A DNA stretch of 24,550 nucleotides from a virus (Duplodnaviria; Caudoviricetes). The notes beneath the pieces are model-generated. The model saw nothing but the letters and a program-made list of their open reading frames with translations, did not search any database and was not told where the DNA came from. The stretch is from the IMG/VR virus record IMGVR_UViG_3300028844_001876, positions 1 through 24,550 of that record. One strand, written 5' to 3'. The translations under genes were made by a program, and so were the position numbers. Below are positions 1 through 17,923 of this stretch, in pieces (position 1 is the first letter of the stretch; each line of letters starts with the position of its first letter).

Positions 1-807
1 ATAAACATTTTTATTCCACGCATATTCAAAAAATTCTAAATCTCTTGCTTGAAACATACCAAAATTAGCATCTGTTAAATAAACATCTCTATGCCCTATT
101 TTCTTAATTGCGTCGATATCTCGTTTTACAATGTCAAGTTCTTTCTTATAGACTTTACCACCTATGCCACCACCCCATTCACAAAAAACACACTGATAAG
201 GACATCCTCGTGTAGTTTCAAAAGTCAAGAACGGCTCTAAGTTTTCTTTCATAGCATAATTGTGAGCCTTTGTCAATAGGTCAATGTGATCTTCATATAT
301 CGAATAATCTTGTTTTGCAATGTTAAAAACAGTTTGTTTATCTGATCTTAACTCCCAACTAATGTTTTCAGCTACAATACCTTCCTCAAACCACATATTA
401 ATCATATCTTCAATAAAGACTTCACCAGGCTTTGTGGGTTTACATATGTAGTCGTACATCGTTCTAGTTGCAAGAAACTCCGGTTCATTTGTACCTATAT
501 GTGGACCACCCAGAACATTTATTATATTAGAATTTTTTTCTTTAAACAGTTTTGCAACATCATCACAAATTGTATAGTTCCATGCATAGCAACTGTATAA
601 TATAATATCTGCATTGCTTATTTCATCATAGACTTGATCATAATCAGTATAAACATTCCACTCAATCGGTGGTTCTAACCATTCTACATTTTCTGAATAT
701 TTTCCAAATCTATTGTAGTGGCTTTGAAACTGAAAATATGCAATATTGTTAGCAAGTGACCAGTCAGCATGTGGTGGATTTATGAATGCAATTGTTAATT
801 TACTCAT
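1..807 (-). CDS. Cobalamin (B12)-binding radical SAM enzyme, class B methyltransferase-like; partial, continues past the left edge
   Basis: Not in the ORF track because there is no stop inside the window. Manual translation from ATG at 807 (ATGA overlap with the stop of 804..1949) is open for 269 codons: MSKLTIAFINPPHADWSLANN...ADIILYSCYAWNYTICDDVAKLFKEKNSNIINVLGGPHIG (B12-binding Rossmann-type motifs S-x-Y-x-W-N and VLGGPH)...FETTRGCPYQCVFCEWGGG (CxxxCxxC at 181-204)...VYLTDANFG. Confidence 0.9.
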   Translation of the reverse strand, partial: MSKLTIAFINPPHADWSLANNIAYFQFQSHYNRFGKYSENVEWLEPPIEWNVYTDYDQVYDEISNADIILYSCYAWNYTICDDVAKLFKEKNSNIINVLGGPHIGTNEPEFLATRTMYDYICKPTKPGEVFIEDMINMWFEEGIVAENISWELRSDKQTVFNIAKQDYSIYEDHIDLLTKAHNYAMKENLEPFLTFETTRGCPYQCVFCEWGGGIGGKVYKKELDIVKRDIDAIKKIGHRDVYLTDANFGMFQARDLEFFEYAWNKNVY

Positions 808-1949
808 AACATTTTTACTTTTTGTCTAAATCCATATGTAAGATCATCTTCACCAACTCTCAGAGGTTTAAATCCTTTTGTTTTCTTGACATAATTGAAT
901 GTCTCTTTGAACACACATTCTTCCATATCATTATGATCTCCAGGCATATCAGCTTTTACAAAGCATGTGAATGGACATTTTTCATAATATTCACATGCAA
1001 AGCAATTGTACTTTTTTAAAAAGCTTTCTACTATTTCTCCTGTTTCAAATGGTTTATCATCTGTTTTTTTATCTCGTTGATACGCTACGCCACAACAACC
1101 ACCAGGTGATGAACCATCTGGAACAATAGTTATTGAATTTCCTCTGGTGCACATCATTGCGCCAGTCTGATTGTATGGATCATGAAACGCATCCATGTTT
1201 TCACAATCAGGATAGTTATCTATCAAATATTTATTGAATGCTAATAACTCACTGTCTTTAGGAATTAATTTTGAGTCTGCTTTAATTAGTGGTGATGGCA
1301 TATAAGCATCAAAATCAACAGGAAAGTTTTTATACAAATAGTCAAAGGTGCTTTTATCATTGCTAGTTATAATTGTTTGTACATTTTGACTAGTGGTAAC
1401 AATTGAAACATTTCTAATATAATTTTTAAAAGTCTCAACATTTTCCAAGAATATGTCTAGTTGATTTGTGTTAAACCTACCTCTTGGATCATAAGATGTT
1501 GAAAGCTTTATATCATGTTTCTTACAAAAGTCCATAACCTTATCTGAATTCTTTTTGTCAAACATGAAATTTGTAAGATAATTAAAATAAATTCTTTTGT
1601 CACCAATGTTAATCTTGGATCTGACTGAATCCATAAATTCATCATATATGTCTAAAAAGCCTTTTTCAATCCAAACATCTTCAAATAATTCTCCACCTAA
1701 TAAGTGTAGTTTATAATCTTTTGACCTTGGGGAATTATTAATAAACTTAGCTACAGTATCACTTTTAGCCAGAATTTCTTCCCTACTAGCACCTACCATT
1801 GAATCGTGATCTTGTGGGCAAAATACACATTTTAAATTGCAGTGTTCAAAAAATATCACAACAATTTCACTAGAGCGTGTTATTTTTTGTTCTATCAATT
1901 TATAGATGGAAAAATCTAATGGTCCTGGATTATCTGGTGCCAATGTCAT
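804..1949 (-). CDS. Radical SAM enzyme with C-terminal SPASM-type Fe-S domain
   Basis: CNLKCVFC (CxxxCxxC), LHLLGGEL (GGE motif), and a C-terminal CTRGNSITIVPDGSSPGGCC...CFACEYYEKCPFTC...EC matching the SPASM Cx2Cx5Cx3C pattern. Confidence 0.9.
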   Translation of the reverse strand: MTLAPDNPGPLDFSIYKLIEQKITRSSEIVVIFFEHCNLKCVFCPQDHDSMVGASREEILAKSDTVAKFINNSPRSKDYKLHLLGGELFEDVWIEKGFLDIYDEFMDSVRSKINIGDKRIYFNYLTNFMFDKKNSDKVMDFCKKHDIKLSTSYDPRGRFNTNQLDIFLENVETFKNYIRNVSIVTTSQNVQTIITSNDKSTFDYLYKNFPVDFDAYMPSPLIKADSKLIPKDSELLAFNKYLIDNYPDCENMDAFHDPYNQTGAMMCTRGNSITIVPDGSSPGGCCGVAYQRDKKTDDKPFETGEIVESFLKKYNCFACEYYEKCPFTCFVKADMPGDHNDMEECVFKETFNYVKKTKGFKPLRVGEDDLTYGFRQKVKML

Positions 1950-3052
1950 ATTAATGAAAACTCTCGTATTTTTTCAGGCTCGTCAACTCTATTCAGAATA
2001 TGATTTATGAGATATTTATTTATAGTATCAGAAGTATTTGAAAATATGGCATTACTAAAAATACTATCACTTTCATTTTTTCCTACATAAGCTTCATTAG
2101 TTAAAAACTCATATAGTTCATCTTTTGTAAAACCACTTTGTATATTTTTTATATGTCTTTTTAACATATCAAAATATTCTCTTGGTTGTTTAATATTTTT
2201 TATATATTGTTCTAATATCTCTATATCTTTATTTGTTATATTTTCAAATATTAAATTATGTCCATAGGCAGAAGGTTTTAAAACATACTTAGATCCAAAA
2301 ATTCTACTACTCATAAAGAAATTTCCAATAGGACTATCATCCTCATATATGTCTTCCAAATTATCTAGTGTATAGATTTTTTTTAGTTTAGCACACTGCG
2401 AAAATTTTATTTTATTAAATTCTGTCATAAATTCTATTTTTAATTCGACAAGATATTCTTCTGATACTTTTCTCATTATCATTTGAATCATATCAGACAA
2501 TTGTTTATGCATTTTTCCCGTAGATATAAATGTCGCTAGAACATATTCAATACTAGGATGTATGTCGTGCTGTTGTTTTACGAAAGCATATTTACCTTCT
2601 TGCTCATTATTCGACATTTTAAATTTATTGTAATAATCTCTAAACTCATTTTCAAGAATTTCTAAACTAATTGCACCTGATCCTGTATACCAATCATTAG
2701 CTTGATTTGTAACATTTTTTTGAAATATAAGTGATTTGTATATTAGAAATGCAGTATCTTCATTACTGTTAGGAAGTATAAAATTAATCCATGTTGCAAA
2801 CATTTTGGCAAGACTATCATCATCTCCATATATTACAAACTTCTTTTCATTTGTATAATTTTGTAAAGCATTTAAAAAAGATTCAGAATCTATTGATGTT
2901 CCACAGTCATGTAGTTTTCCACTAAAAGCTTTTTCGTGTGCCAGTTCACTCCACATGGGAAAACCAGCTATCTTAGAATATACGCATCTATCTTTATTAG
3001 GATCTAAATTTTCATCAGTCTCTAAATATACATTCCTATACAGATGAAACAT
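1946..3052 (-). CDS. Hypothetical protein (368 aa) in the radical SAM operon
   Basis: Long ORF overlapping both neighbours (4 bp and 17 bp); very AT-rich; no motif recognised. Confidence 0.8.
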   Translation of the reverse strand: MFHLYRNVYLETDENLDPNKDRCVYSKIAGFPMWSELAHEKAFSGKLHDCGTSIDSESFLNALQNYTNEKKFVIYGDDDSLAKMFATWINFILPNSNEDTAFLIYKSLIFQKNVTNQANDWYTGSGAISLEILENEFRDYYNKFKMSNNEQEGKYAFVKQQHDIHPSIEYVLATFISTGKMHKQLSDMIQMIMRKVSEEYLVELKIEFMTEFNKIKFSQCAKLKKIYTLDNLEDIYEDDSPIGNFFMSSRIFGSKYVLKPSAYGHNLIFENITNKDIEILEQYIKNIKQPREYFDMLKRHIKNIQSGFTKDELYEFLTNEAYVGKNESDSIFSNAIFSNTSDTINKYLINHILNRVDEPEKIREFSLI

Positions 3053-3704
3053 TTTCCAACAAACCTTCTCCGACCGCCCAAGTTAATACAAACATTGGAT
3101 TTTTTTCATAGGACCAGTAGTAGAATAGATTTTTACCTGAAAACATATATTCATTAAAATACTTTGAATAGTATTTCAGTGTTGTTTTATCGATTTTATT
3201 GTAGAAGTAATAAAAATCTTCATGCTTTAAAACGCTAACAAAGTTTATTCCTTTGATATCGTCGGTCTTATCTTCGGTATGAGATTTTACAAAATCTTGT
3301 ATAGTTTCATCTTGAATAATGTACATATTATATAATGTTAATGAATCTAATCTATTAGACCACTTTTCAATTATTTCTCGATTTTCTGTAATAAACGATT
3401 GTAGTTCGTCATCAATTGAGGTTAAATTTTTATAGCCATTAAGTACATTAATTGCAAATTTTTCTAAAATATCCACAGACAGTATTTGTGTAAAATTAAG
3501 ATAAGCTTTACCAAGTTCAAACATTTCAGAGTAGTTATCTATTTGTATATCACACGGCAATTCTAGGTTGCTGAGATATACCAGCAACTTTTCACCTTTT
3601 AATTCAGACTCACAATAATCAATTAAATATCGGGTATCTTTATCTTCAAAGTATAATTTTAAATCTTCAATATCTAATGGAGCTTTCACTTTTTTCAGAT
3701 TCAT
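3036..3704 (-). CDS. Hypothetical protein (222 aa) in the radical SAM operon
   Basis: ORF with an AGGAG Shine-Dalgarno at 3719-3715, about 10 nt upstream of the ATG; acidic and aromatic-rich; no motif recognised. Confidence 0.8.
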   Translation of the reverse strand: MNLKKVKAPLDIEDLKLYFEDKDTRYLIDYCESELKGEKLLVYLSNLELPCDIQIDNYSEMFELGKAYLNFTQILSVDILEKFAINVLNGYKNLTSIDDELQSFITENREIIEKWSNRLDSLTLYNMYIIQDETIQDFVKSHTEDKTDDIKGINFVSVLKHEDFYYFYNKIDKTTLKYYSKYFNEYMFSGKNLFYYWSYEKNPMFVLTWAVGEGLLENVSSV

Positions 3705-3710
3705 AATAAG

Positions 3711-4589
3711 TTATCTCCTTCCGCGAGATCCATGGCAAGAACTATGACAAGAGTTGTGACATATAGATACACCAGTTAATCCAAGTTGAGAATTTGCCGA
3801 ACTAGCATCTGATGCAGTTGATAACCAAGCTTGATATAAACTATTCATAAGAGTTTCTAAATGAGTATCATCTATAAGTTCATCTGTTGTGAGTAGTGCA
3901 GGATTTGCAACCTCAGAACTTGAAATATTAAATCCATATTTGTGGTGTAAAATTCCATAACCTGACGCAGAAAATGATGATTGTACTCTTGCGGCTCTGC
4001 CTAACAATTGATTTAATTCTGTAGCAGCCTTTGTCTGTGCTGCTTGTGGAACACTAGAATTAAAAAGAGTAAGTACATTTGCTTTATCTGATAGTAGATC
4101 GGGAAAAGAAAATGGTTCTGTTGGTCCACTGGTGGTATTAGCTGCAACAAAAGCATTTAATATTGCAGCACTTGCCGCAGTGTCTGCAGCATTTTTTGCA
4201 TTTGTAACTGCAGTGACCCAATTGACATTATATCGTAATACTTCTCTAGCCTTCGCAATTGCTTGTGTGTTTTTTGAAAGAATAGGCGTATTACCTCCTC
4301 CACCAGTTGACGAAATTGATATACTAATATTAATGTTTCTCACTCTAGTATACCTATTTAAATCTGCTAGTAAAGTATCATATATGTCAGACGCATCAAT
4401 TATCGCATTTGTACCAGGCAAATCTGCATTATCAGTAATGCCGGTAGAAGGTCCATCAATTAAATATGAAAAATCTGCAGACGGTAAATTTCCATCATGA
4501 AATTTTATCGCATTATTAATTTTATCAGTAACAAGTACATGATACCTGCCTAATAAATTACTTTCTTTCACTGATCCAGTTATTGGCAT
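3711..4589 (-). CDS. Putative modification substrate / virion-like protein with C-terminal (CHxS)3-RGRR tail
   Basis: 292 aa, rich in Ala/Ser/Thr/Asn like the structural proteins. All three Cys lie in the last 16 residues (CHNSCHSSCHGSRGRR). AGGAG SD upstream. Lies inside the radical SAM operon. The ORF is secure; the substrate role is inference. Confidence 0.7.
   Translation of the reverse strand: MPITGSVKESNLLGRYHVLVTDKINNAIKFHDGNLPSADFSYLIDGPSTGITDNADLPGTNAIIDASDIYDTLLADLNRYTRVRNINISISISSTGGGGNTPILSKNTQAIAKAREVLRYNVNWVTAVTNAKNAADTAASAAILNAFVAANTTSGPTEPFSFPDLLSDKANVLTLFNSSVPQAAQTKAATELNQLLGRAARVQSSFSASGYGILHHKYGFNISSSEVANPALLTTDELIDDTHLETLMNSLYQAWLSTASDASSANSQLGLTGVSICHNSCHSSCHGSRGRR
3714..3761 (-). 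repeat. Period-4 peptide repeat Cys-His-x-Ser x3 followed by RGRR
   Basis: TGT CAC AAC TCT / TGT CAT AGT TCT / TGC CAT GGA TCT / CGC GGA AGG AGA. Synonymous codon differences between units suggest conservation at the protein level. Confidence 0.9.
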
Positions 4590-4598
4590 TTTTTTCTC

Positions 4599-5648
4599 CT
4601 AGACATAATGGGCTAATTCCATCATCAGACTTTTTGGTGCTCCGCATATATCTCCTTCCCATCCTAACTGATGGCAATCACCACCACAATACTTAGCAAC
4701 AGGACAAGAAAGACAATTTGGATTTCTCATTTTTTCTTCTAATATATTTCTTATTCTCTTAGGGCTATTTATAAGAGTTTTAATAGAATCATCTAAATGT
4801 CCGAATTGAAATTCTGGCGCAGAGTTGGGACATCCGCTAATTGTACCATCGCCGTTTATAGTAAATAGCTTTTCTTCACAATCTCTGCAGAATGTACCAC
4901 ACGTAGTAAGAGTTTTTTCAAACTTAGCATATACATTTTCAAGAAAATCATTTTCAAACCAGTCTCTCGCGCCATACTTTTCACTTTGTATGTGCATCTT
5001 TAAAAAGTAATCATCAAGTTCTTTATTAGATGGAAATATTTCTGATGCTTTTCTAGCACTTCCGTTATTTGTAAGACGTTCTAAAGATACCTCTTGTACA
5101 CCCAATCTGCGGCACCACCTTAACAATGTGATGGGATCTTTTTCAAGAGTGTCTTTAGTCAAACTAATAAACAAACGTATAGTAACACCTTGACTTAATA
5201 AGGTCTTGACATTTTTATGCCACAAGCTATACTGTTTATTGTTGTCGAAACGAATTTTACGATCCCAAGAAGTGCCGAGTCTACTATTTAAAGGACCTTT
5301 GATGAAATCAATGTGCTGATCTTTTAATTTAAACACAAGATTAGTTGTTGCACCCCAACTCATATTATCCCAAAGACCATCACAAGCATCATATACTTTT
5401 CTCATTTGTCCTACAGGAACAAGAAATGGCTCACCGCCATGAAACTCCATGTGTATACTATCGTGTGTTGCATCTCTTGGACGTTTTGAAGCTAAGTGTG
5501 CCTCATTTCTAAATCTATGAATCCAATCAACTAACTTATCTGTATTCCAATAAATCTTTGCGCCATTACTGCCACTTGTGAAACAGTGAGCGCAATTTAG
5601 TTGGCAAGTCTCAGTTGTCTTTAGATAAAAGAGCCAATTCATCGTCAA
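4599..5648 (-). CDS. Radical SAM/SPASM enzyme, peptide or protein maturase-like
   Basis: YLKTTETCQLNCAHC (CxxxCxxC), EFHGGEP, and a full SPASM motif CEEKLFTINGDGTISGC...CLSCPVAKYCGGDC...IC. Start is TTG 5648 or ATG 5642, with GAGG SD at 5658-5655. Confidence 0.92.
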   Translation of the reverse strand: MTMNWLFYLKTTETCQLNCAHCFTSGSNGAKIYWNTDKLVDWIHRFRNEAHLASKRPRDATHDSIHMEFHGGEPFLVPVGQMRKVYDACDGLWDNMSWGATTNLVFKLKDQHIDFIKGPLNSRLGTSWDRKIRFDNNKQYSLWHKNVKTLLSQGVTIRLFISLTKDTLEKDPITLLRWCRRLGVQEVSLERLTNNGSARKASEIFPSNKELDDYFLKMHIQSEKYGARDWFENDFLENVYAKFEKTLTTCGTFCRDCEEKLFTINGDGTISGCPNSAPEFQFGHLDDSIKTLINSPKRIRNILEEKMRNPNCLSCPVAKYCGGDCHQLGWEGDICGAPKSLMMELAHYV

Positions 5649-6117
5649 CTTTTTCCTCTATAAATTTCTCTAAACCAAAACTGAGAGTAAGTGCCTCATG
5701 TTCGTTAATAGCTTGATGTTTTGTTCCTGCAGGAATATGAAGAAACGTACCTTCTTTAATAGTAAGAACCGTATCATCAAGTGTTAGTGTTTTTGAGCCT
5801 TCGCAACAATGTATAATAACATCATCTGGATCAGTATGTTCTTTAAAAGAATACGCGCCCGGCTTTGCATAAAATAGATGACACGTTATTGGTCCTGCAT
5901 GTTCATATTGATCTTCTAGTTCTAGACAATAAGAAAAAATATCTGAATTATAGTCTTCCATTCTTTCAATTTTAATTGAATGATCTGGATACTTCATCAC
6001 TTCAGCAAAGTTTTTTACTTTCTTCTCACGACCTTTTTTGTCTATGAAATAAACCATATTTTGATCATATACAATTTTTGATTGGATAGCTTTTAGGAAT
6101 TGATCTTTAGTAAACAT
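5611..6117 (-). CDS. JmjC/cupin-fold 2-oxoglutarate Fe(II) oxygenase, YcfD/ROX-like minimal domain
   Basis: HTD...EGSK...LHIPAGTKH gives an HxD...H facial triad plus a likely 2OG-binding Lys (H99, D101, K114, H139 in track numbering). True start is probably ATG 6117, since AAGGA SD lies 6 nt upstream and ATG 6132 sits almost at the predicted transcription start. Confidence 0.8.
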   Translation of the reverse strand: MFTKDQFLKAIQSKIVYDQNMVYFIDKKGREKKVKNFAEVMKYPDHSIKIERMEDYNSDIFSYCLELEDQYEHAGPITCHLFYAKPGAYSFKEHTDPDDVIIHCCEGSKTLTLDDTVLTIKEGTFLHIPAGTKHQAINEHEALTLSFGLEKFIEEKVDDELALLSKDN

Positions 6118-6140
6118 AATTGTTCCTTTCATGATAAAGT

Positions 6141-6237: not shown

Positions 6238-7455
6238 TCACAATTTAAGAATACATTCAATCATTTTCTCTCCTTCAAAATCATTTGATTCAAGAGCAAT
6301 TCCTACAATATGTGCACCGTTAAATTCTACACTCGCACAACCATTATGATATGCATATACAGCTTCACCCTTACGAATAGGACCAGAAATTCTTACAGGT
6401 ACACGACCTTTAAGAGCAAGTGCTTGTCCTTGTGCTTCAGAATTCATTAGAAAAGCTGGTTTTTCTGAGATAACGCCCACTGGAATACCAGAATTAGTAC
6501 AGTTTGTAGTTTCCCCATTTGGACCATGATTTACCATCATGACTGTACCAATGGGATGTTCTTCATCAGTAGTATATTTTTCTGCAAGGTCAGCATAGTT
6601 TGCAGATGTTGCATTACCTTGAAAGGTAGTCGCATAAACATTAGCAAACTTATTGCTTGCAGTACCTATATCTAATGTGTTATTTGTTGTGGTAGTTACA
6701 TGATCATTCACTTCAACAGTACTATTAAATATTGCTGCTTTATTAGCAGTAATTGTTCCGCCAGGAGAACCTGCACTATCACCAAATAAATTGACTCCTT
6801 CAAACGTCATAGCAGATGTAATAGTTTGTGGAGTTGTTCCATTATAACTACCACCAGTGTATACTAGATCCATAGGCAATGCGCTTTTTGCAACTGCACC
6901 ATAATCACCCGAATCTGGTCCATGAACAATTTTTTCTGCAGTAATATTAGGTATGTGTGAAGCATTTATTGTGCCGCCAATAAGTTTGCTTACACTAAGA
7001 CTAGATAATTGAGCATCAGGAAAAGTGCCTGTAGTAATTTTAGAAGCATCTAAGTTGGGAAGTCTAGCAACAGCAACAGTTCCTAAAGTTATTGTTGTAG
7101 CGTCAACACTTGATATTCTTGATGCGCCGAAAGCACCTGTAGTAATTTTAGAGGCATCTAAGTTCGGTATGTCTGTAGGTAAAAGTGCCGCGCGTGTTAG
7201 TGTTATAACACCAGTTATATTATTATATCCTAATGATACATAACTTCCTGCTCCAGCATTTGCACCTGAAATCAATGTTCTAGCAGTTGCTGCCGTAACA
7301 ACTTTGGCTTCTATTGAATTTAAAGAGCCTACGATAGTACCGCTATCATCAGTATTCAAATCATCTAAGTCACCTAAATAACTAGAAATGAGATTTGTTT
7401 TCTGCCTCCAAGCTTCTATAGAATTTCCGAGGTCAACTTTCTGTATTCTTGCCAT
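6238..7455 (-). CDS. Tail fibre / baseplate-attached fibre with C-terminal intramolecular-chaperone (Peptidase_G2-like) domain
   Basis: N-terminal SIEAWRQKTN segment typical of T4-like baseplate-attached proteins; 18-aa LDASKITTG-type repeats; C-terminal YADLAEKY...GVISEKPAFLMN...ALKGRVPVRISGPIRKGE...VGIALES. Confidence 0.75.
   Translation of the reverse strand: MARIQKVDLGNSIEAWRQKTNLISSYLGDLDDLNTDDSGTIVGSLNSIEAKVVTAATARTLISGANAGAGSYVSLGYNNITGVITLTRAALLPTDIPNLDASKITTGAFGASRISSVDATTITLGTVAVARLPNLDASKITTGTFPDAQLSSLSVSKLIGGTINASHIPNITAEKIVHGPDSGDYGAVAKSALPMDLVYTGGSYNGTTPQTITSAMTFEGVNLFGDSAGSPGGTITANKAAIFNSTVEVNDHVTTTTNNTLDIGTASNKFANVYATTFQGNATSANYADLAEKYTTDEEHPIGTVMMVNHGPNGETTNCTNSGIPVGVISEKPAFLMNSEAQGQALALKGRVPVRISGPIRKGEAVYAYHNGCASVEFNGAHIVGIALESNDFEGEKMIECILKL
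6919..7170 (-). repeat. Five 18-aa fibre repeats
   Basis: IPNLDASKITTGAFGASR / ISSVDATTITLGTVAVAR / LPNLDASKITTGTFPDAQ / LSSLSVSKLIGGTINASH / IPNITAEKIVHG. Units 1 and 3 share a 29-nt near-identical DNA block (7136-7164 and 7028-7056, 108 bp apart). Confidence 0.85.
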
Positions 7456-7457
7456 TT

Positions 7458-7670
7458 CTAGTCACCCATCTTTCTATTTAATTCTAACAGTAATTTTTTT
7501 ATATCCGACACTTCAGATTTTAATGTTTCAAATTCTTCTTCTTTTTCCATTCTTCTTTTTTTAGCTTCTTTAGCAGCACGAATGGATTCAACATCAATAT
7601 TTATTAGTGCAGTAGAATTTGGATCTTTCATAAAAGTTCTATCATCATATACTTGTTTTAAATTTGTCAT
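7458..7670 (-). CDS. Small coiled-coil protein of the type found after VrlC-like genes in T4-like marine phages
   Basis: 70 aa, KDPNSTALIN followed by heptad-like FETLKSEVSDIKKLLLEL; 4-bp overlap with the upstream gene. Confidence 0.75.
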   Translation of the reverse strand: MTNLKQVYDDRTFMKDPNSTALINIDVESIRAAKEAKKRRMEKEEEFETLKSEVSDIKKLLLELNRKMGD

Positions 7671-10600
7671 GTTGCTAACGCTATTGCCCTCAAATCTCTA
7701 ATTACTGGAACTTGACTACTATTTGTAGATTTCAGTACTGCTTTAAATTTAAATTTAGTAAACGACTTATCAGTAAATCCAGTAACACCTCCAATAGTAT
7801 ATGTGTAATCTCTGAAAACTCCAGGATCATTATCTGCAGGCATAAGAGTATCTGGTTCTTGTAAGATCCAAGGTTCTGTAGAATAGTCAACATCACTTAA
7901 ACATGCTTTATAATAAAAATCTATATTTGCAGTAACTGGTCTATTAGCACCTACTATAACTCTTATACCTATTGCGGGTTCAAATAACTCAACAGATTTC
8001 GTAATGTGTTTTGCTGCGGCTGATCCACCAAATGCACTAGTTTCTCTTTCAAACGTAGGTACAGTAACATTCTGATTTAGTGAAGTGTTAATTATGCTTG
8101 TAGAAATTGAATCACTATTGTCAATAATGTTTTCAATCAAATGCATAGAACATCTTTCCAAATCTATTACAGGCGAAACAAAACCATTTGTATTAGTTTC
8201 TGAGTTTAAAGATGCAGTAATAATTGCAGATTTTTTAGATAGTGCAGCCTCTTTTGCAGGACTTGCTATGAGTTGAGGTGCTGGAAAATAATTATTTTTT
8301 CCTATACTAATATTATACCCTGCCGCAGCGGAATTTTGTGTGTATGGAGTTTCTAAACCAGCATAAGATTTGCCAGTCATAGACTGCATTTTATATGAGA
8401 GAGATGTGGAACCTGGTGTCATTGATTGTATTGTAGGCCACATAACATTAAAAGGCGTTTGCTCGGTTGCAACAACTACAGCACCACCAGTATTTAAAAT
8501 TTGAAACACTTGAGGTGTGACTGGAAAAGACGCAAAGCCAGGATTGCTAATACTAGAATTTAAAAAAGTATAACCAGTATAATCAACCGCCGCAATTGTT
8601 TGTGTTCCATTTATCAAACTTGCGTATGTAGCATCTACAACTCCAGATATTGTCACACTATCGCCAACAACAAATCCATGATTAGAATGTTTTACTCTGA
8701 CACTTGTATGATCTTCTGGATTTTCAAATAAAACAATAGGATCAAATTCTAATATTTTGTTAGGCACGTTTGCATTCTTTAAAACCGCAGTGGATGCTGC
8801 AGTAGAAAAATCTGCACGATACAAAGTAAACTTCATATCTTCCCACTGAGATGGTTCCCAAGTTTGACTATTTTGAGATTTAAACAAAGAGCCTAAAAAT
8901 GGTTGTGTATTGATTTTTTTATCTGTTGAACCTAATACATATTCTCCAACTTTTGAGCAGAAAAGTGTGTAATCTGTATTATCTGTGTAACACACGATAG
9001 CGTAAGATGTATTAGGTTTCAAATAAACTGGATATGCAAATTCAAACGTTGTTGGACTAAGTGCGTCATTACTTGTAGCAACTTGAGATGAGGCAAGCGT
9101 TACTTGCGAACCAGGAATAACTTTATTAGAATGGGGATATCCGTTTACCATAGGTCTTAGTTCAACAGAAACAGATTTTGTTGGTGATTTAGTATTAAAG
9201 AATAAATCTACTTTAGTTACGAATGTACCTTGACCTGATGTATTAGAAACTAGAAATGATTGTGCAAGAGGATCAAAGAAACTGCATCCACCTGACCGAA
9301 CAGCTTGTCCTTCATCAGTAACAACGTGGTATCTATTTACGTTTGTTATATCACCTTCAACGTTTAATACGCGAGTTGATTCAATATCTTCTTGCCTAAT
9401 AAACAAGGTCCCAGTTGTTGCATATATTGCAGACGCAACACTTACAGCATCCCTTACATTATCAACGGTAATATCTAACAATCTAAATTCTGTTGCGCCA
9501 GTGGGAAATTTAAGTGTATCTGTTGACGGAATAAAAAATGAACCTTGTAATGTTCCGTGTGCATCAGTTACAAGAGTTGAAGATCCAAATGGGTGCGATA
9601 ATGCATCTTTATGCAAATTTCCATATTCAGTTTGTTTGGTTAAATTATGCTCCACCACAGCCTCTTGTTTTACCCAATCTTTTACATCAACGCCATCATA
9701 GAAAGCAAACATTTGTGTATTTGGTTGTAAGCCTCTTGCTTCAAAATACACTAACTTCGATCTTTGAAAAGGTATGTGGTGAAATGATATTTGTCTATCA
9801 CCTATAATTTCTGTTATAGTTTCGCTGGATACAACTTTATTTACTACTGTACCTGTAGTAATGTAATCTCCAGTTTCTGTTCTTTTGTAATGTCTTTTAG
9901 AAGTTTTTAGCCAACCAGATCGTACCGTCCAGTGGTGCGTATAACTATATGCGCCAACTTCCCGTTTTGTTTCGCCGGTATTTGAATTTGTAGCATCTCC
10001 TATTTGAAGATCATTAATATCTGTTCCGCCCCAATTCCATTCCCATTCATCCCATAATTGCGCGTTATCTGTATTCAATACACTGCCAAGATGAATGACA
10101 TGTGGGGCTATATAATCTGTATTTCGCCAATCATCAGATGATGGAGTAAGTGTTATTTTACCACTGTAAAGTGCTAAGATATATGGATTTACGTTATTTG
10201 TACTTGAACATAGTGCCTGCTTTATCATTTCTACACTGGTATACGATTTAAAAATCATATCACCTTTAACTGTAATATTGCTATTACCAGCGTCTGATGC
10301 ATCATAATAAAGACCAGAATTTTTAACATTAACACTAGGTCTAGCAAATCCACCTGCAGGATCTACCGATGCTCTGTGATCAGGAGAAAGTGTATCGGTA
10401 AAAGTTTGATCAGAAAAATCATCTGCAACAAAGCCACTTCGGGTTCTTGGATTACCATTAGCATCTAAAACATCAATACTTTTTGTATCAAGTTCTAATA
10501 AAGAAAGTGAAACAGCATCTTCAACTCTGTTTATTCTATTTTCTATTTTTCCAATATCGCGCATTGTATAACGTTTATTATCAACTATATTATAAGAAAC

Positions 10601-12979
10601 ATCTTGTTCATCAAGCGTAAATGGATTAACTCTTAAACGATATAGTTCCATAGACCTGGCAGGAACAGAAGGATATATAGGTTCAAAAGAAGGTGTTCCT
10701 TCAATATATTTTAATTCGCCGTTTTCTTGAATAACAAGTCTATCGTATCTAGGTAAATAATATTCACTATCACTTTCAACTGTTACGGCGTTTTTAGGAA
10801 TAGGTATATAATTAGCTGATGCATGTGAAAATGTACCATCCGTTCCTTTTTTAGGTCTAAAATCTAAATAGCTTTGCAAAGATACTGTCTGACCATTTTC
10901 TTTTGTGTAACTTGGAATATCTTTATATGTAAATCCTGTTCCTCCATATGAATTGGGAACAATAATATCACCGCCACTAATATCAAAGTAATCAAAGTCC
11001 ACATATATTACAGAAGCAGCAACTTTTTTACCTGATTTTAATCTTAATCGACTCATATCATAGAATGCATCTTTACAGCCATCATCAAGTTCAAATGACT
11101 GGCTACAATCTGATCCAGATGCACTTGTTAATCTTATCGAATTTATTTTATTAACGTGAAATTCATTTAGATCAATACCCGCACCACCATAAGAAAATGT
11201 GGCTTTAGTATTTCTAAGAGTTTTAGTTGCAATCGTTGGCGCAGAATTTACAACATATGCAATAATCGTTAATGTATCCGCTGCCGTAATAACAGTACTT
11301 GCAGTAATATTTACTGATGCGCCAGATGATACTAATGCAGTTGTAGCACCCGTGTCCAAAACTCCATTTTTATAAATTAACCAATTATCTTTATCTGTGA
11401 AAGTAAAATCTGATCCACCGGAAGATATAGATACCGAAGTACTGCCACTACCTACCACGCTTTTCGTTAGTTGTTGAGTAATTGAAATATTATTAGCAGC
11501 CTTCATTCTATAATATGTCGTAGGAACTAATAAACATTTTTCTTGGGTTCTGTGTATAATACTTGCGGATCTTTGTCGTAAAATATTACCAAATTTATCA
11601 ACATCACTACCTATGCTTAAACAATGTTCTCCAAAAGTTTTTGTATTGTCTGTAATTATAATATCAAAGATATAGAGTTTATACTCTGCACCGAAATCTG
11701 CATGATTAGTATAACTAGAGCCTGATCTACTATAATTTTCTATAGCCCTGACCCTACATGTGCCTATTGTTGAACCAGTATGACCTTCACCAGTTCTTAA
11801 ATTTAAAGTTCCTAATGTTTGAATATCAGGCATAAGTCTAAGAGTCTCTCCTGCAGGAACAGTCAATAGAACATAGTGACCATAACCTACACCAGTATTA
11901 TCATTTGGTACAATCTCAGATGTTTGGGATTTATTTATATCTAAGAAGGTAGGAACTGTCTTTTCAATTCTATATCCATTAACATAAGCTGTTGCTGGCG
12001 AAACTCTTATTTTTAATTTCGTATCTGTTGTATGTGATGTAAATTGAACATGAAAAGGATTTACTGTATAATCTCCAGATTCTTCATCCGTTCGTTTTGC
12101 AATCAAATCGTTTATTCTATTATATCCATCTTCACCTGTTACTCTATGAACGATATTGGAATTTTCTACCTTTGCAGCATAAACAAATGTTTGATTTGCT
12201 GTAATTGCGTCCTCTGTAGTGAGAGTGAGTTGTATTCTAAATCTATCTGCACCGGGAGCAGTAAAATTTGGATTCACACCTTGATTATCATAAATGCTAT
12301 TATCGTCTGCAGGTGTAACAATATCTTGGGTTACTAAAAATCCTACAGTTTTTGTAATTGATGATGTATACTTAGATATGATCAAATGTTGTAAAGGCGC
12401 ATGGACAAAAAATCCATTAGTGAAAAAATCAGCTTCGCCAAAAGAAATTCTAGTTCCCATTCCAACTGCTGGATTTAATGTTGTGTTTGTTGTCTGTACT
12501 GTCAATTTTGTAACACCTTGAACTTCACTCAATTCTTCACCAGGAGTTAAAGCAATTGAAGTTGTTCCTGCTGTTGCTGTTGATGTATCAAGGTATTGGA
12601 TATAAATTGTTGCAGGATCGCCGTCAACTGCAGGTAAAACTTCTAAGATTTGTACGGTAATGCCAGAGGTTTGACCAGTAAAAGATTTTCCCACTAAATC
12701 ATTAAATCCTGTTGGCAAAGCATTAATCGAAGTATCTAACTTAGCGAAACGATACTTAGCATTAATGAAAATACCACCAGGAGAAATTGCAGCACCTTCT
12801 TTAAAGATGTTTTTACCAAATCTGGTTATACCTTCTTGAATAATTGTTTGAAGCTGTGTTAATTCCCTAGCTTGCAAAGCCTTTTTATTATTAAAAAGGA
12901 TTCTATGAAAGCTTTTAGTTTCATCATAATCATCTTTGTAATCACTTGCAAATGTATTTGTCGTGTAGGTCTTTACCAT
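7667..12979 (-). CDS. Large virion structural protein, VrlC/DUF4815-like (baseplate-associated)
   Basis: 1770 aa; YKDDYDETKSFHRILF...LQARELTQLQTIIQ, APGADR, RTDEESGDYTVNPF, NKRYTMRDIGKIENRI, DPLAQSF, GSLFKSQN...W...EDMKFTLYRADF, terminal VPVIRDLRAIALA; directly downstream of gp8. Confidence 0.85.
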   Translation of the reverse strand: MVKTYTTNTFASDYKDDYDETKSFHRILFNNKKALQARELTQLQTIIQEGITRFGKNIFKEGAAISPGGIFINAKYRFAKLDTSINALPTGFNDLVGKSFTGQTSGITVQILEVLPAVDGDPATIYIQYLDTSTATAGTTSIALTPGEELSEVQGVTKLTVQTTNTTLNPAVGMGTRISFGEADFFTNGFFVHAPLQHLIISKYTSSITKTVGFLVTQDIVTPADDNSIYDNQGVNPNFTAPGADRFRIQLTLTTEDAITANQTFVYAAKVENSNIVHRVTGEDGYNRINDLIAKRTDEESGDYTVNPFHVQFTSHTTDTKLKIRVSPATAYVNGYRIEKTVPTFLDINKSQTSEIVPNDNTGVGYGHYVLLTVPAGETLRLMPDIQTLGTLNLRTGEGHTGSTIGTCRVRAIENYSRSGSSYTNHADFGAEYKLYIFDIIITDNTKTFGEHCLSIGSDVDKFGNILRQRSASIIHRTQEKCLLVPTTYYRMKAANNISITQQLTKSVVGSGSTSVSISSGGSDFTFTDKDNWLIYKNGVLDTGATTALVSSGASVNITASTVITAADTLTIIAYVVNSAPTIATKTLRNTKATFSYGGAGIDLNEFHVNKINSIRLTSASGSDCSQSFELDDGCKDAFYDMSRLRLKSGKKVAASVIYVDFDYFDISGGDIIVPNSYGGTGFTYKDIPSYTKENGQTVSLQSYLDFRPKKGTDGTFSHASANYIPIPKNAVTVESDSEYYLPRYDRLVIQENGELKYIEGTPSFEPIYPSVPARSMELYRLRVNPFTLDEQDVSYNIVDNKRYTMRDIGKIENRINRVEDAVSLSLLELDTKSIDVLDANGNPRTRSGFVADDFSDQTFTDTLSPDHRASVDPAGGFARPSVNVKNSGLYYDASDAGNSNITVKGDMIFKSYTSVEMIKQALCSSTNNVNPYILALYSGKITLTPSSDDWRNTDYIAPHVIHLGSVLNTDNAQLWDEWEWNWGGTDINDLQIGDATNSNTGETKREVGAYSYTHHWTVRSGWLKTSKRHYKRTETGDYITTGTVVNKVVSSETITEIIGDRQISFHHIPFQRSKLVYFEARGLQPNTQMFAFYDGVDVKDWVKQEAVVEHNLTKQTEYGNLHKDALSHPFGSSTLVTDAHGTLQGSFFIPSTDTLKFPTGATEFRLLDITVDNVRDAVSVASAIYATTGTLFIRQEDIESTRVLNVEGDITNVNRYHVVTDEGQAVRSGGCSFFDPLAQSFLVSNTSGQGTFVTKVDLFFNTKSPTKSVSVELRPMVNGYPHSNKVIPGSQVTLASSQVATSNDALSPTTFEFAYPVYLKPNTSYAIVCYTDNTDYTLFCSKVGEYVLGSTDKKINTQPFLGSLFKSQNSQTWEPSQWEDMKFTLYRADFSTAASTAVLKNANVPNKILEFDPIVLFENPEDHTSVRVKHSNHGFVVGDSVTISGVVDATYASLINGTQTIAAVDYTGYTFLNSSISNPGFASFPVTPQVFQILNTGGAVVVATEQTPFNVMWPTIQSMTPGSTSLSYKMQSMTGKSYAGLETPYTQNSAAAGYNISIGKNNYFPAPQLIASPAKEAALSKKSAIITASLNSETNTNGFVSPVIDLERCSMHLIENIIDNSDSISTSIINTSLNQNVTVPTFERETSAFGGSAAAKHITKSVELFEPAIGIRVIVGANRPVTANIDFYYKACLSDVDYSTEPWILQEPDTLMPADNDPGVFRDYTYTIGGVTGFTDKSFTKFKFKAVLKSTNSSQVPVIRDLRAIALAT

Positions 12980-17915: not shown

Positions 17916-17923
17916 TATTTATA
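17916..17923 (-). promoter_or_regulatory. T4-type late promoter TATAAATA
   Basis: Exact TATAAATA on the minus strand in the 41-bp intergenic gap, 27 nt upstream of the gp25 ATG. Confidence 0.75.

Follow-up and report, generated by a model that had tools for sequence, protein, structure and literature searches.

The system closest in make-up to the locus described here is bacterial HXS defence, which comprises two radical S-adenosylmethionine (SAM) enzymes, a small protein and an effector with five HxS repeats, with a modification of +8 Da mapped to SHRSS in the last repeat (Li et al. 2026, PMC13128918). The locus lies in a stretch of 24,550 nucleotides of viral DNA (the window; IMG/VR record IMGVR_UViG_3300028844_001876) and centers on a gene for a 292-aa protein, here called T, that ends in a 16-residue Cys-His repeat (the tail) and is encoded between genes for two radical SAM enzymes, R1 and R2. 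We conclude that this is probably an undescribed, widespread phage protein-maturation cassette, a variant of radical SAM substrate maturation that resembles HXS but is not a member of it. The interpretation we consider probable is that T is a virion protein whose tail is tailored by the radical SAM enzymes of the cassette. We are aware of no case in which radical SAM enzymes tailor virion proteins, and searches of the literature yielded none.

The likeness to HXS lies in the presence of two radical SAM enzymes plus an extra small protein, in a substrate that is a protein and not a short peptide, in the tandem His-x-Ser repeats of HxsA, which are rich in basic residues and have their counterpart in the three H-x-S/N units of T, and in the modified SHRSS of HxsA, which adjoins Arg/Ser much as in the T ending CHGSRGRR (PMC13128918). 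The differences are nevertheless extensive. T has no match at E ≤ 0.01 to HxsA (TIGR03979); on the HxsB model (TIGR03978) R1 scored 36.3 and R2 27.5 bits against a cut-off of 370, with no HxsC (TIGR03977) match; and the cassette proteins u222 and u368 have no match to HxsD (TIGR03976). Each T repeat opens with an invariant Cys and the repeats stand at the extreme C-terminus; T carries no Pfam domain and no peptidoglycan-binding domain was found in it. The gene order also differs (HxsD-B-C-A in HXS, cupin-R1-T-u222-u368-R2 here, with a cupin and a B12-binding radical SAM protein added), as does the setting, a phage structural module in place of a bacterial defence locus.

Further systems may be regarded as mechanistic analogues, namely QhpC/QhpD, anaerobic sulfatase-maturating enzymes (anSME), and the ranthipeptide and triceptide synthases. 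The SPASM enzyme QhpD cross-links cysteines of QhpC, a subunit kept in the final assembly, and thus offers the pairing of a SPASM radical SAM enzyme with a protein that stays in an assembly; R1, however, scores 19 bits against 453 on TIGR03906, no quinone-forming context is present, and the substrate motif is another. The sulfatase target motif of anSME is C-x-P/A-x-R. R1 aligns over residues 11-327 to the anSME model and has the same compact layout with no peptide-recognition domain, and the last T unit, C-H-G-S-R, places Cys and Arg at the sulfatase spacing, but the R1 score is 37.2 bits against 349.45 (TIGR03942), the middle position in T is G, S or N and not P/A, and the first two Cys have no Arg at +4. 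Ranthipeptide/SCIFF enzymes (PapB, CteB) cross-link periodic Cys motifs by means of SPASM enzymes, and CteB is a solved relative of R1; on the PapB model (NF047865), however, R1 reaches 34 and R2 26.4 bits against 340, and the acceptor residues and leader logic differ. The H-x-S/N units of T fit the aromatic-x-x pattern of the triceptides, which are also made by radical SAM enzymes, and ChlB is among the solved relatives of R1; for HtkB, the reported ring runs from His C2 to Lys C-beta (PMC11499958). Against this likeness, the XyeB, YhhB and FxsB models gave 16.3, 29.4 and 28.7 bits against 450, 445 and 370, triceptide substrates are short peptides, and the invariant Cys of T has no part in that chemistry.

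R1 itself has CX3CX2C at C15/C19/C22, an invariant C-terminal Cys set that includes CX2CX5CX3C (alignment A2) and no N-terminal recognition domain, and its score on TIGR04085 (37.9 bits, cut-off 27) places it among the radical SAM/SPASM proteins. R2 has CX3CX2C near its N-terminus and CX2CX5CX3C near its C-terminus, with a Fer4_12 score of 22.3 against a cut-off of 22; as R1 and R2 share phrog_1802, they are paralogues. The top model matches of R1, all weak, are DynA, CbpB, anSME and HxsB. Its best sequence matches among solved structures, likewise weak, include 8vpo (1.1e-9, the top match, with no informative name), anSME (2e-9), CteB (3.2e-7) and ChlB (2.2e-6), of which anSME and CteB act on cysteine. 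A sequence search of solved structures with R2 returned nothing, and the cupin matched generic cupins only.

The evidence that connects T to these enzymes is genomic co-occurrence, which was assessed from both sides. In one set, 248 pattern matches led to 98 confirmed loci, of which 80 viral loci were kept and searched by BLAST with the window proteins (the T-found loci); in the other, 80 loci were kept of 371 confirmed through R1, and the tail was not used as bait (the R1-found loci). All 80 T-found loci encode at least one same-strand open reading frame (ORF) of at least 200 aa with CxxxCxxC near the N-terminus, four being the commonest number. Conversely, the tail-bearing ORF stands directly downstream of R1 in 70 of the R1-found loci and after one inserted ORF in 5 more; every one of the 75 loci with downstream room encodes a tail-bearing ORF within ~1.7 kb, and the other 5 are too short. 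Co-occurrence of T and radical SAM genes is near-obligate in both directions, which supports the prediction, already made in the sequence-only reading, that T is a substrate of the neighboring enzymes. Locus order is fixed as [DUF4815, fibre,] cupin, R1, T, u222, [u368,] R2, [B12-binding radical SAM protein], brackets marking the parts that may be missing. In the window the members are as follows, with the number of T-found loci that contain each:

3711..4589, minus strand: T, 292-aa Cys-His-tail protein from the ORF listing, the long form of its family.
3714..3761, minus strand: codons of the tail C-H-N-S-C-H-S-S-C-H-G-S-R-G-R-R, residues 277-292 of T, with the stop codon at 3711-3713.
4599..5648, minus strand: R1, radical SAM/SPASM protein of 349 aa (NCBIfam SPASM model, invariant Cys, phrog_1802), in 71/80 loci.
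804..1949, minus strand: R2, second radical SAM protein, 381 aa, motifs read from its sequence, in 72/80 loci.
3036..3704, minus strand: u222, 222 aa, phrog_20767, always directly downstream of T, in 71/80 loci.
5611..6132, minus strand: cupin of 173 aa (Pfam Cupin_2, weak JmjC_2) with an H-x-D...H metal triad in its sequence, in 65/80 loci.
1946..3052, minus strand: u368, 368 aa, an optional cassette member with no family match, in 41/80 loci.
1..807, minus strand: B12-binding radical SAM protein, methyltransferase-like, optional and cut by the window edge (Pfam B12-binding and Radical_SAM; NCBIfam KedN5-type, 1.2e-24), in 20/80 loci.
6238..7455, minus strand: tail-fibre-like protein of 405 aa, encoded immediately upstream of the cassette (phrog_19602 'tail fiber protein', 2.6e-16), in 51/80 loci.
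7667..12979, minus strand: 1770-aa DUF4815 structural protein (Pfam DUF4815, 3e-56), ahead of the fibre gene and cassette in many loci, in 39/80 loci.

Of the T-found loci that have no R1, one is truncated at its edge and eight have a second architecture, in which a giant fibre gene (at least 2556 aa) is followed by tandem T genes (124 + 127 aa). In L077, L053 and L038 the T pair is followed by a 353-365-aa ORF, a u222-like ORF and 5-6 consecutive CxxxCxxC ORFs (340-393 aa), in varying order. The second architecture is also found in L054, L072, L074, L079 and L080, and L169 is similar.

The tail is the constant part of T. The sequence-only reading had described a 292-aa ORF at 3711..4589 ending in CHNS-CHSS-CHGS-RGRR, and this is confirmed on the minus strand, where all large ORFs of the window lie; the plus-strand frame over 3711-4589 has stops throughout. 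The translation closes with ...SICHNSCHSSCHGSRGRR, the protein end taken from the ORF translation being ...GVSICHNSCHSSCHGSRGRR, and the only Cys residues are 277, 281 and 285, all in the terminal period-4 repeat as had been noted. A word-based search gave 156 relatives of T, 5 of them long (285-293 aa) and the remainder mostly 187-195 aa, while an exhaustive profile search gave 731 clusters (50% identity) at E ≤ 1e-3, 374 at ≤ 1e-10 and 100 at ≤ 1e-30; family lengths span 124-319 aa. Compared with the common 187-195-aa form, T of the window has an extra helical insertion of ~110 aa at residues 92-205 (alignment A1; low-confidence model). In the 88 T ORFs of the 80 T-found viral loci the tail is always at the C-terminus, and C, H, R(-4), R(-2) and R(-1) are present in 88/88. 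The pattern CH..CH..CH..R.RR ends 133 of 143 newly listed family representatives, with Cys, His and the three Arg in all 133, and in 91 of these there is no other Cys outside the tail. In alignment A3, whose members were selected for having the tail, mean pairwise identity is 27.6% in the body and 81.4% in the tail.

The serine positions are less strict. Across the 133 tail-bearing representatives the fourth residue of the three units is S124/N8/Q1, S105/N24/A2/D2 and S121/N7/A5, and as the R1-found loci include tails such as CHSNCHSNCHSSRNRR, Ser is dispensable at each of the three positions. The check proposed earlier, that homologues keep invariant residues beside a diverging body, is borne out for Cys and His, but the His-x-Ser triad described there is not strict, each Ser position being Asn or Ala in some members. 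The ten remaining representatives are truncated or have small tail variants, with the middle Cys replaced in 2, an extra Gly before the Arg block in 3, a displaced middle unit in 1 and the third Cys-His unit lost in 1. Tail-variant proteins are P0180, P0226, P0233, P0262 and P0163, the middle-Cys variants reading CHSNH.NTCH.., and in L173, a contig assigned to Gemella, the tail end is CHSSCHSNCHHR. The recurrence of the tail is far beyond chance. T belongs to a large family in which a fast-diverging alpha/beta body is joined to an invariant tail, (Cys-His-x-Ser/Asn)x3-Arg-x-Arg-Arg. Searches with T, u222 and u368 found nothing in Pfam or NCBIfam and only families of unknown function in PHROGs, and searches of the ESM Atlas with family proteins gave nothing usable.

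Evidence that T is a virion protein, as the sequence-only reading had supposed, comes from a homologue in Agrobacterium phage Atu_ph07. Its gp170 (296 aa, tail end CHSSCHASCHNSRSRR) is placed in the family by synteny, by an hhalign probability of 99.4 over the last 72 residues and by Foldseek (E 9.8e-7, TMq 0.64). The published virion proteome gives gp170 a mass of 31.89 kDa, a count of 8 unique peptides and a coverage of 35.16% (Attai et al. 2018, PMC6102473 Table S5). As the computed masses of gp170, gp176 and gp177 equal the values in that table, the numbering agrees. The cassette neighbors gp168, gp169, gp171 and gp172 are missing from the virion list (PMC6102473 Table S5), gp169 being the u222 homologue. 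The gel behavior of gp170 is unusual for its mass: it was detected in slices 1-9 with its peak in slice 1, the gel top, where proteins of 75-139 kDa peak, whereas the capsid protein (43.5 kDa) is most abundant in slice 6 and proteins of 30-34 kDa in slices 7-8 (PMC6102473 and its Table S5). By this comparison gp170 runs far above its monomer mass, and disulfides, an oligomer stable in sodium dodecyl sulfate (SDS) and covalent cross-links are each possible explanations of its position. In addition, a Gly_rich_2 (PF21722) protein is encoded between R1 and a shortened T (L157/L158/L160/L162, 5016-5939), and in P0152 Gly_rich_2 is fused N-terminal to T, the fused part matching phrog_863 'tail fiber assembly' at 1.7e-6; these associations suggest a further tie of T to the tail apparatus.

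Structure prediction indicates a folded body that carries a loose end. The model of T from the window, built on 35 sequences, is poor (predicted local distance difference test score, pLDDT, 59.9), whereas that of the short member P0123 (187 aa, 125 sequences) reaches pLDDT 90.7 with a predicted template modelling score (pTM) of 0.84. In its order, the P0123 model has a helix (10-26), a strand (29-32), a short helix (57-60), a helix (69-85), a hairpin (86-96/109-120), a helix (143-161) and a strand (164-172); from the same model, the tail is probably flexible. Foldseek of this model against solved structures gave no match at E ≤ 1e-3 (best 0.72), and a search of solved structures with the T sequence gave nothing meaningful. 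BFVD returned six matches at E ≤ 1e-3, all uncharacterised phage proteins. The T-body fold is present in three proteins of 504-660 aa from a single uncultured myovirus, ctijX18 (BFVD entries A0A8S5USJ8, A0A8S5USJ7 and A0A8S5USV2). No known fold was recognised in the modelled body, which by itself does not make the fold new. A confidently folded body in proteins of up to 319 aa, with body peptides of a homologue in virions, sets T apart from the short precursors of peptides made by the ribosome and modified after translation (RiPPs), and the earlier description of the tail as a RiPP core on a very large leader is not borne out: the body is folded in the P0123 model, and the virion peptides cover 35% of gp170.

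Several observations weigh against the tailoring of a virion-borne T. Gene linkage cannot by itself pair an enzyme with its substrate. Against the models of characterised maturases, R1 and R2 score far below the cut-offs throughout, and homology therefore does not reveal the chemistry. The conservation counts draw on searches baited with the tail itself, the R1-based set being the unbiased one, and in the P0123 model the tail has low confidence (pLDDT 55-63). On the side of the virion, the Atu_ph07 stock was purified with polyethylene glycol (PEG) only, and among the 131 proteins listed are some that are not structural (RecA-like, ssDNA-binding, ribonucleotide reductase) (PMC6102473), so that carry-over of gp170 is possible. 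In Ralstonia phage RSL2, the T gene, ORF068, is labelled 'hypothetical' and the nearby ORF065 'virion structural protein'. Finally, the loading buffer as described names no reductant (PMC6102473), and migration of gp170 in the top slice could be due to disulfides between tail Cys residues, which would favor unmodified thiols.

This last point bears on the alternative that survives best, which we consider unlikely: that the tail is an unmodified Zn, Fe or Cu site of Cys-His pairs at i, i+4 and i+8, possibly shared between subunits, which stabilises or anchors the virion protein, the radical SAM enzymes acting on some other substrate. The invariance of Cys and His beside varying 'Ser' positions is what such a site would lead one to expect, with a four-residue spacing the pairs would line up along one side of a helix, and reactive free thiols would fit gp170 in the top slice of a gel whose buffer has no named reductant. 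His-lined metal sites exist in T4-type fibres. A metal site, however, leaves unexplained why a radical SAM gene is found at 80/80 T loci and T at 75/75 R1 loci with room for it, why stacks of 5-6 radical SAM-like ORFs stand behind the T pair, and what the invariant R-x-R-R end, which has no obvious metal role, is for.

The same gel position, reached by a 31.9-kDa protein after 95 °C in SDS and in the slice of 75-139-kDa proteins, could also mean that the cross-links run between molecules and staple the tail to a second T subunit or to a protein of the fibre or baseplate, T being a permanent rivet; the position of T, always after fibre genes, and its fusion or adjacency to a Gly_rich_2 domain in one lineage agree with this. 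We judge it very unlikely, as disulfides or an SDS-stable oligomer explain the gel equally, the argument rests on one phage and one gel, and the characterised SPASM maturases that we know of make links within one peptide. Although PqqA and MftA have an invariant core at the extreme C-terminus beside SPASM enzymes, it is most improbable that T is likewise a carrier or precursor whose modified tail is cleaved off to give a small diffusible product or cofactor, as for pyrroloquinoline quinone and mycofactocin, since its body, a domain of 170 aa, is well folded and conserved throughout the family, no peptidase was recognised by Pfam or NCBIfam in the cassette (protease genes were not looked for beyond it), the homologue is found in virions at 35% coverage and the gene lies within the structural module.

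Tailoring of T by the cassette therefore remains the interpretation we favor as probable, with the tail, as predicted from sequence, most likely the substrate of the two SPASM radical SAM enzymes whose genes flank that of T. At a late stage of infection, R1 and R2, which have no RiPP recognition element and would combine an anSME-like layout with auxiliary Fe-S clusters, would act on the flexible T tail, and the predicted product has Cys-sulfur cross-links (thioethers), His-centered three-residue rings, or both. Cys-directed chemistry (thioether formation, or oxidation as in anSME) and His three-residue rings are both plausible. The cupin may add oxygen and the B12-binding enzyme methyl groups, u222 would serve as a non-virion helper, and the finished T would be built into the periphery of the tail or baseplate. 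As the tail is identical in phages of unrelated hosts, a host-independent role is predicted for it: it might form a rigid knot, cationic or metal-binding, or anchor T to a conserved partner; a variable receptor contact is unlikely. A bolder version, which we regard as distinctly unlikely, is that the enzymes forge a cross-linked Cys-His 'warhead' on a phage tail protein, covalent, cationic and possibly metal-bearing, that acts in the host envelope at adsorption or DNA entry and would be the phage counterpart of the HXS effector, whose radical SAM-matured HxS repeats block DNA entry. If true, it would be the first radical SAM modification of a virus particle as well as a new protein cross-link chemistry.

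In this proposal a whole enzyme set (two to six radical SAM enzymes, a cupin and sometimes a B12-binding radical SAM enzyme) would be devoted to one 16-residue tail. The tail has stayed the same in phages whose hosts are marine Alphaproteobacteria, Ralstonia, Burkholderia, Agrobacterium, Sinorhizobium, Pseudomonas and, it appears, Firmicutes, and this implies a host-independent function on the particle that makes exacting chemical demands. With cultured carriers available and a T homologue in one virion proteome, the question can be tested directly; the cassette could yield new cross-link chemistry, and may inform the bacterial HXS defence, which is built of similar parts.

Cultured carriers, among them jumbo phages such as Atu_ph07 and RSL2, were found by the R1 search and comprise Agrobacterium phage Atu_ph07, Ralstonia phages RSL2, RSF1, RsoM3USA and FLC4-x, Burkholderia phages FLC6, FLC8 and SURPRISE13, Sinorhizobium phage Phosso and Pseudomonas phage pPa_SNUABM_DT01, the cassette locus being unannotated in all of them. 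A tblastn search of 50,697 phage records with T of the window and the short form P0012 had given no match; as the R1 search found these carriers, that negative reflects a failure of sensitivity and not absence. In passages of papers on the carrier phages, the genes are named just radical SAM, Fe-S oxidoreductase or cupin, with role unknown (PMC8066314, PMC11898562). Literature searches found no paper describing the tail family, nothing for 'CHGSRGRR' or 'PF21722', and nothing relevant joining radical SAM/SPASM with phage tail fibre. Among 185,579 bacteria and archaea (one genome per species) there were only 13 confirmed T matches, from which we take the family to be essentially confined to phage sequence. 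Nearly all of these are contigs of metagenome-assembled genomes (MAGs) with the cassette, and they include Marinovum, Rickettsiales, five Bdellovibrionaceae, Gemella and a small contig of a Dysosmobacter isolate. The cassette-bearing MAG contigs assigned to Bdellovibrionaceae/Pseudobdellovibrio are L166, L168, L170, L171 and L172, one of them 299 kb long.

The source record is a complete 24.5-kb IMG/VR entry estimated to cover 9% of its genome, and it comes from a T4-like marine myovirus. Pfam identified gp5-like lysozyme and needle parts, gp25, gp6, a wedge protein, gp8 and the 1770-aa DUF4815 protein in the window, and the gp6-like wedge protein is 38% identical to that of Phage C48C1 and 32% to that of Pelagibacter phage HTVC008M. 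At its C-terminus the 405-aa fibre protein matches the Peptidase_G2 autoproteolytic chaperone domain weakly and below threshold, and it repeats an 'NLDASKITTG(A/T)F' motif.

Two features to which the sequence-only reading had drawn attention in T have ordinary explanations. Its spot counts of GC (26/60 at 4141-4200, 10/60 at 2161-2220) are exact, and the gene as a whole has 35.8% GC against 33.3% in the window, with 26-28% in the two AT-rich genes of unknown function and 34-37% in the fibre and baseplate genes. As GC at third codon positions (15.7%) equals that of the neighbors, the excess is attributed to an Ala/Gly/Ser/Thr-rich composition; a foreign origin of T, considered on the same grounds, was dropped, the gene lying in the fibre and baseplate range. 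The two helices it had called similar have an ungapped BLOSUM62 score of 4, which was reached by 914 of 20000 shuffles and is exceeded by other 20-mers in T, as expected of chance.

A T4-type late promoter was also considered as a signal. The sequence TATAAATA, which we take to be the T4 late-promoter consensus, occurs on the minus strand at 4766-4773, inside R1 and ~180 nt upstream of the T start, and at 17916-17923, in the gap ahead of the gp25 gene; with 5 matches against 4.75 expected by chance, it was rejected. The genes around T are tightly packed, with 9 nt separating R1 from T and 6 nt separating T from u222, a spacing that counts in favor of the proposed link. Read from the TTG listed as its start, R1 shares 38 nt (5611-5648) with the end of the cupin gene, and the true start may lie slightly downstream, the second Met being residue 3.

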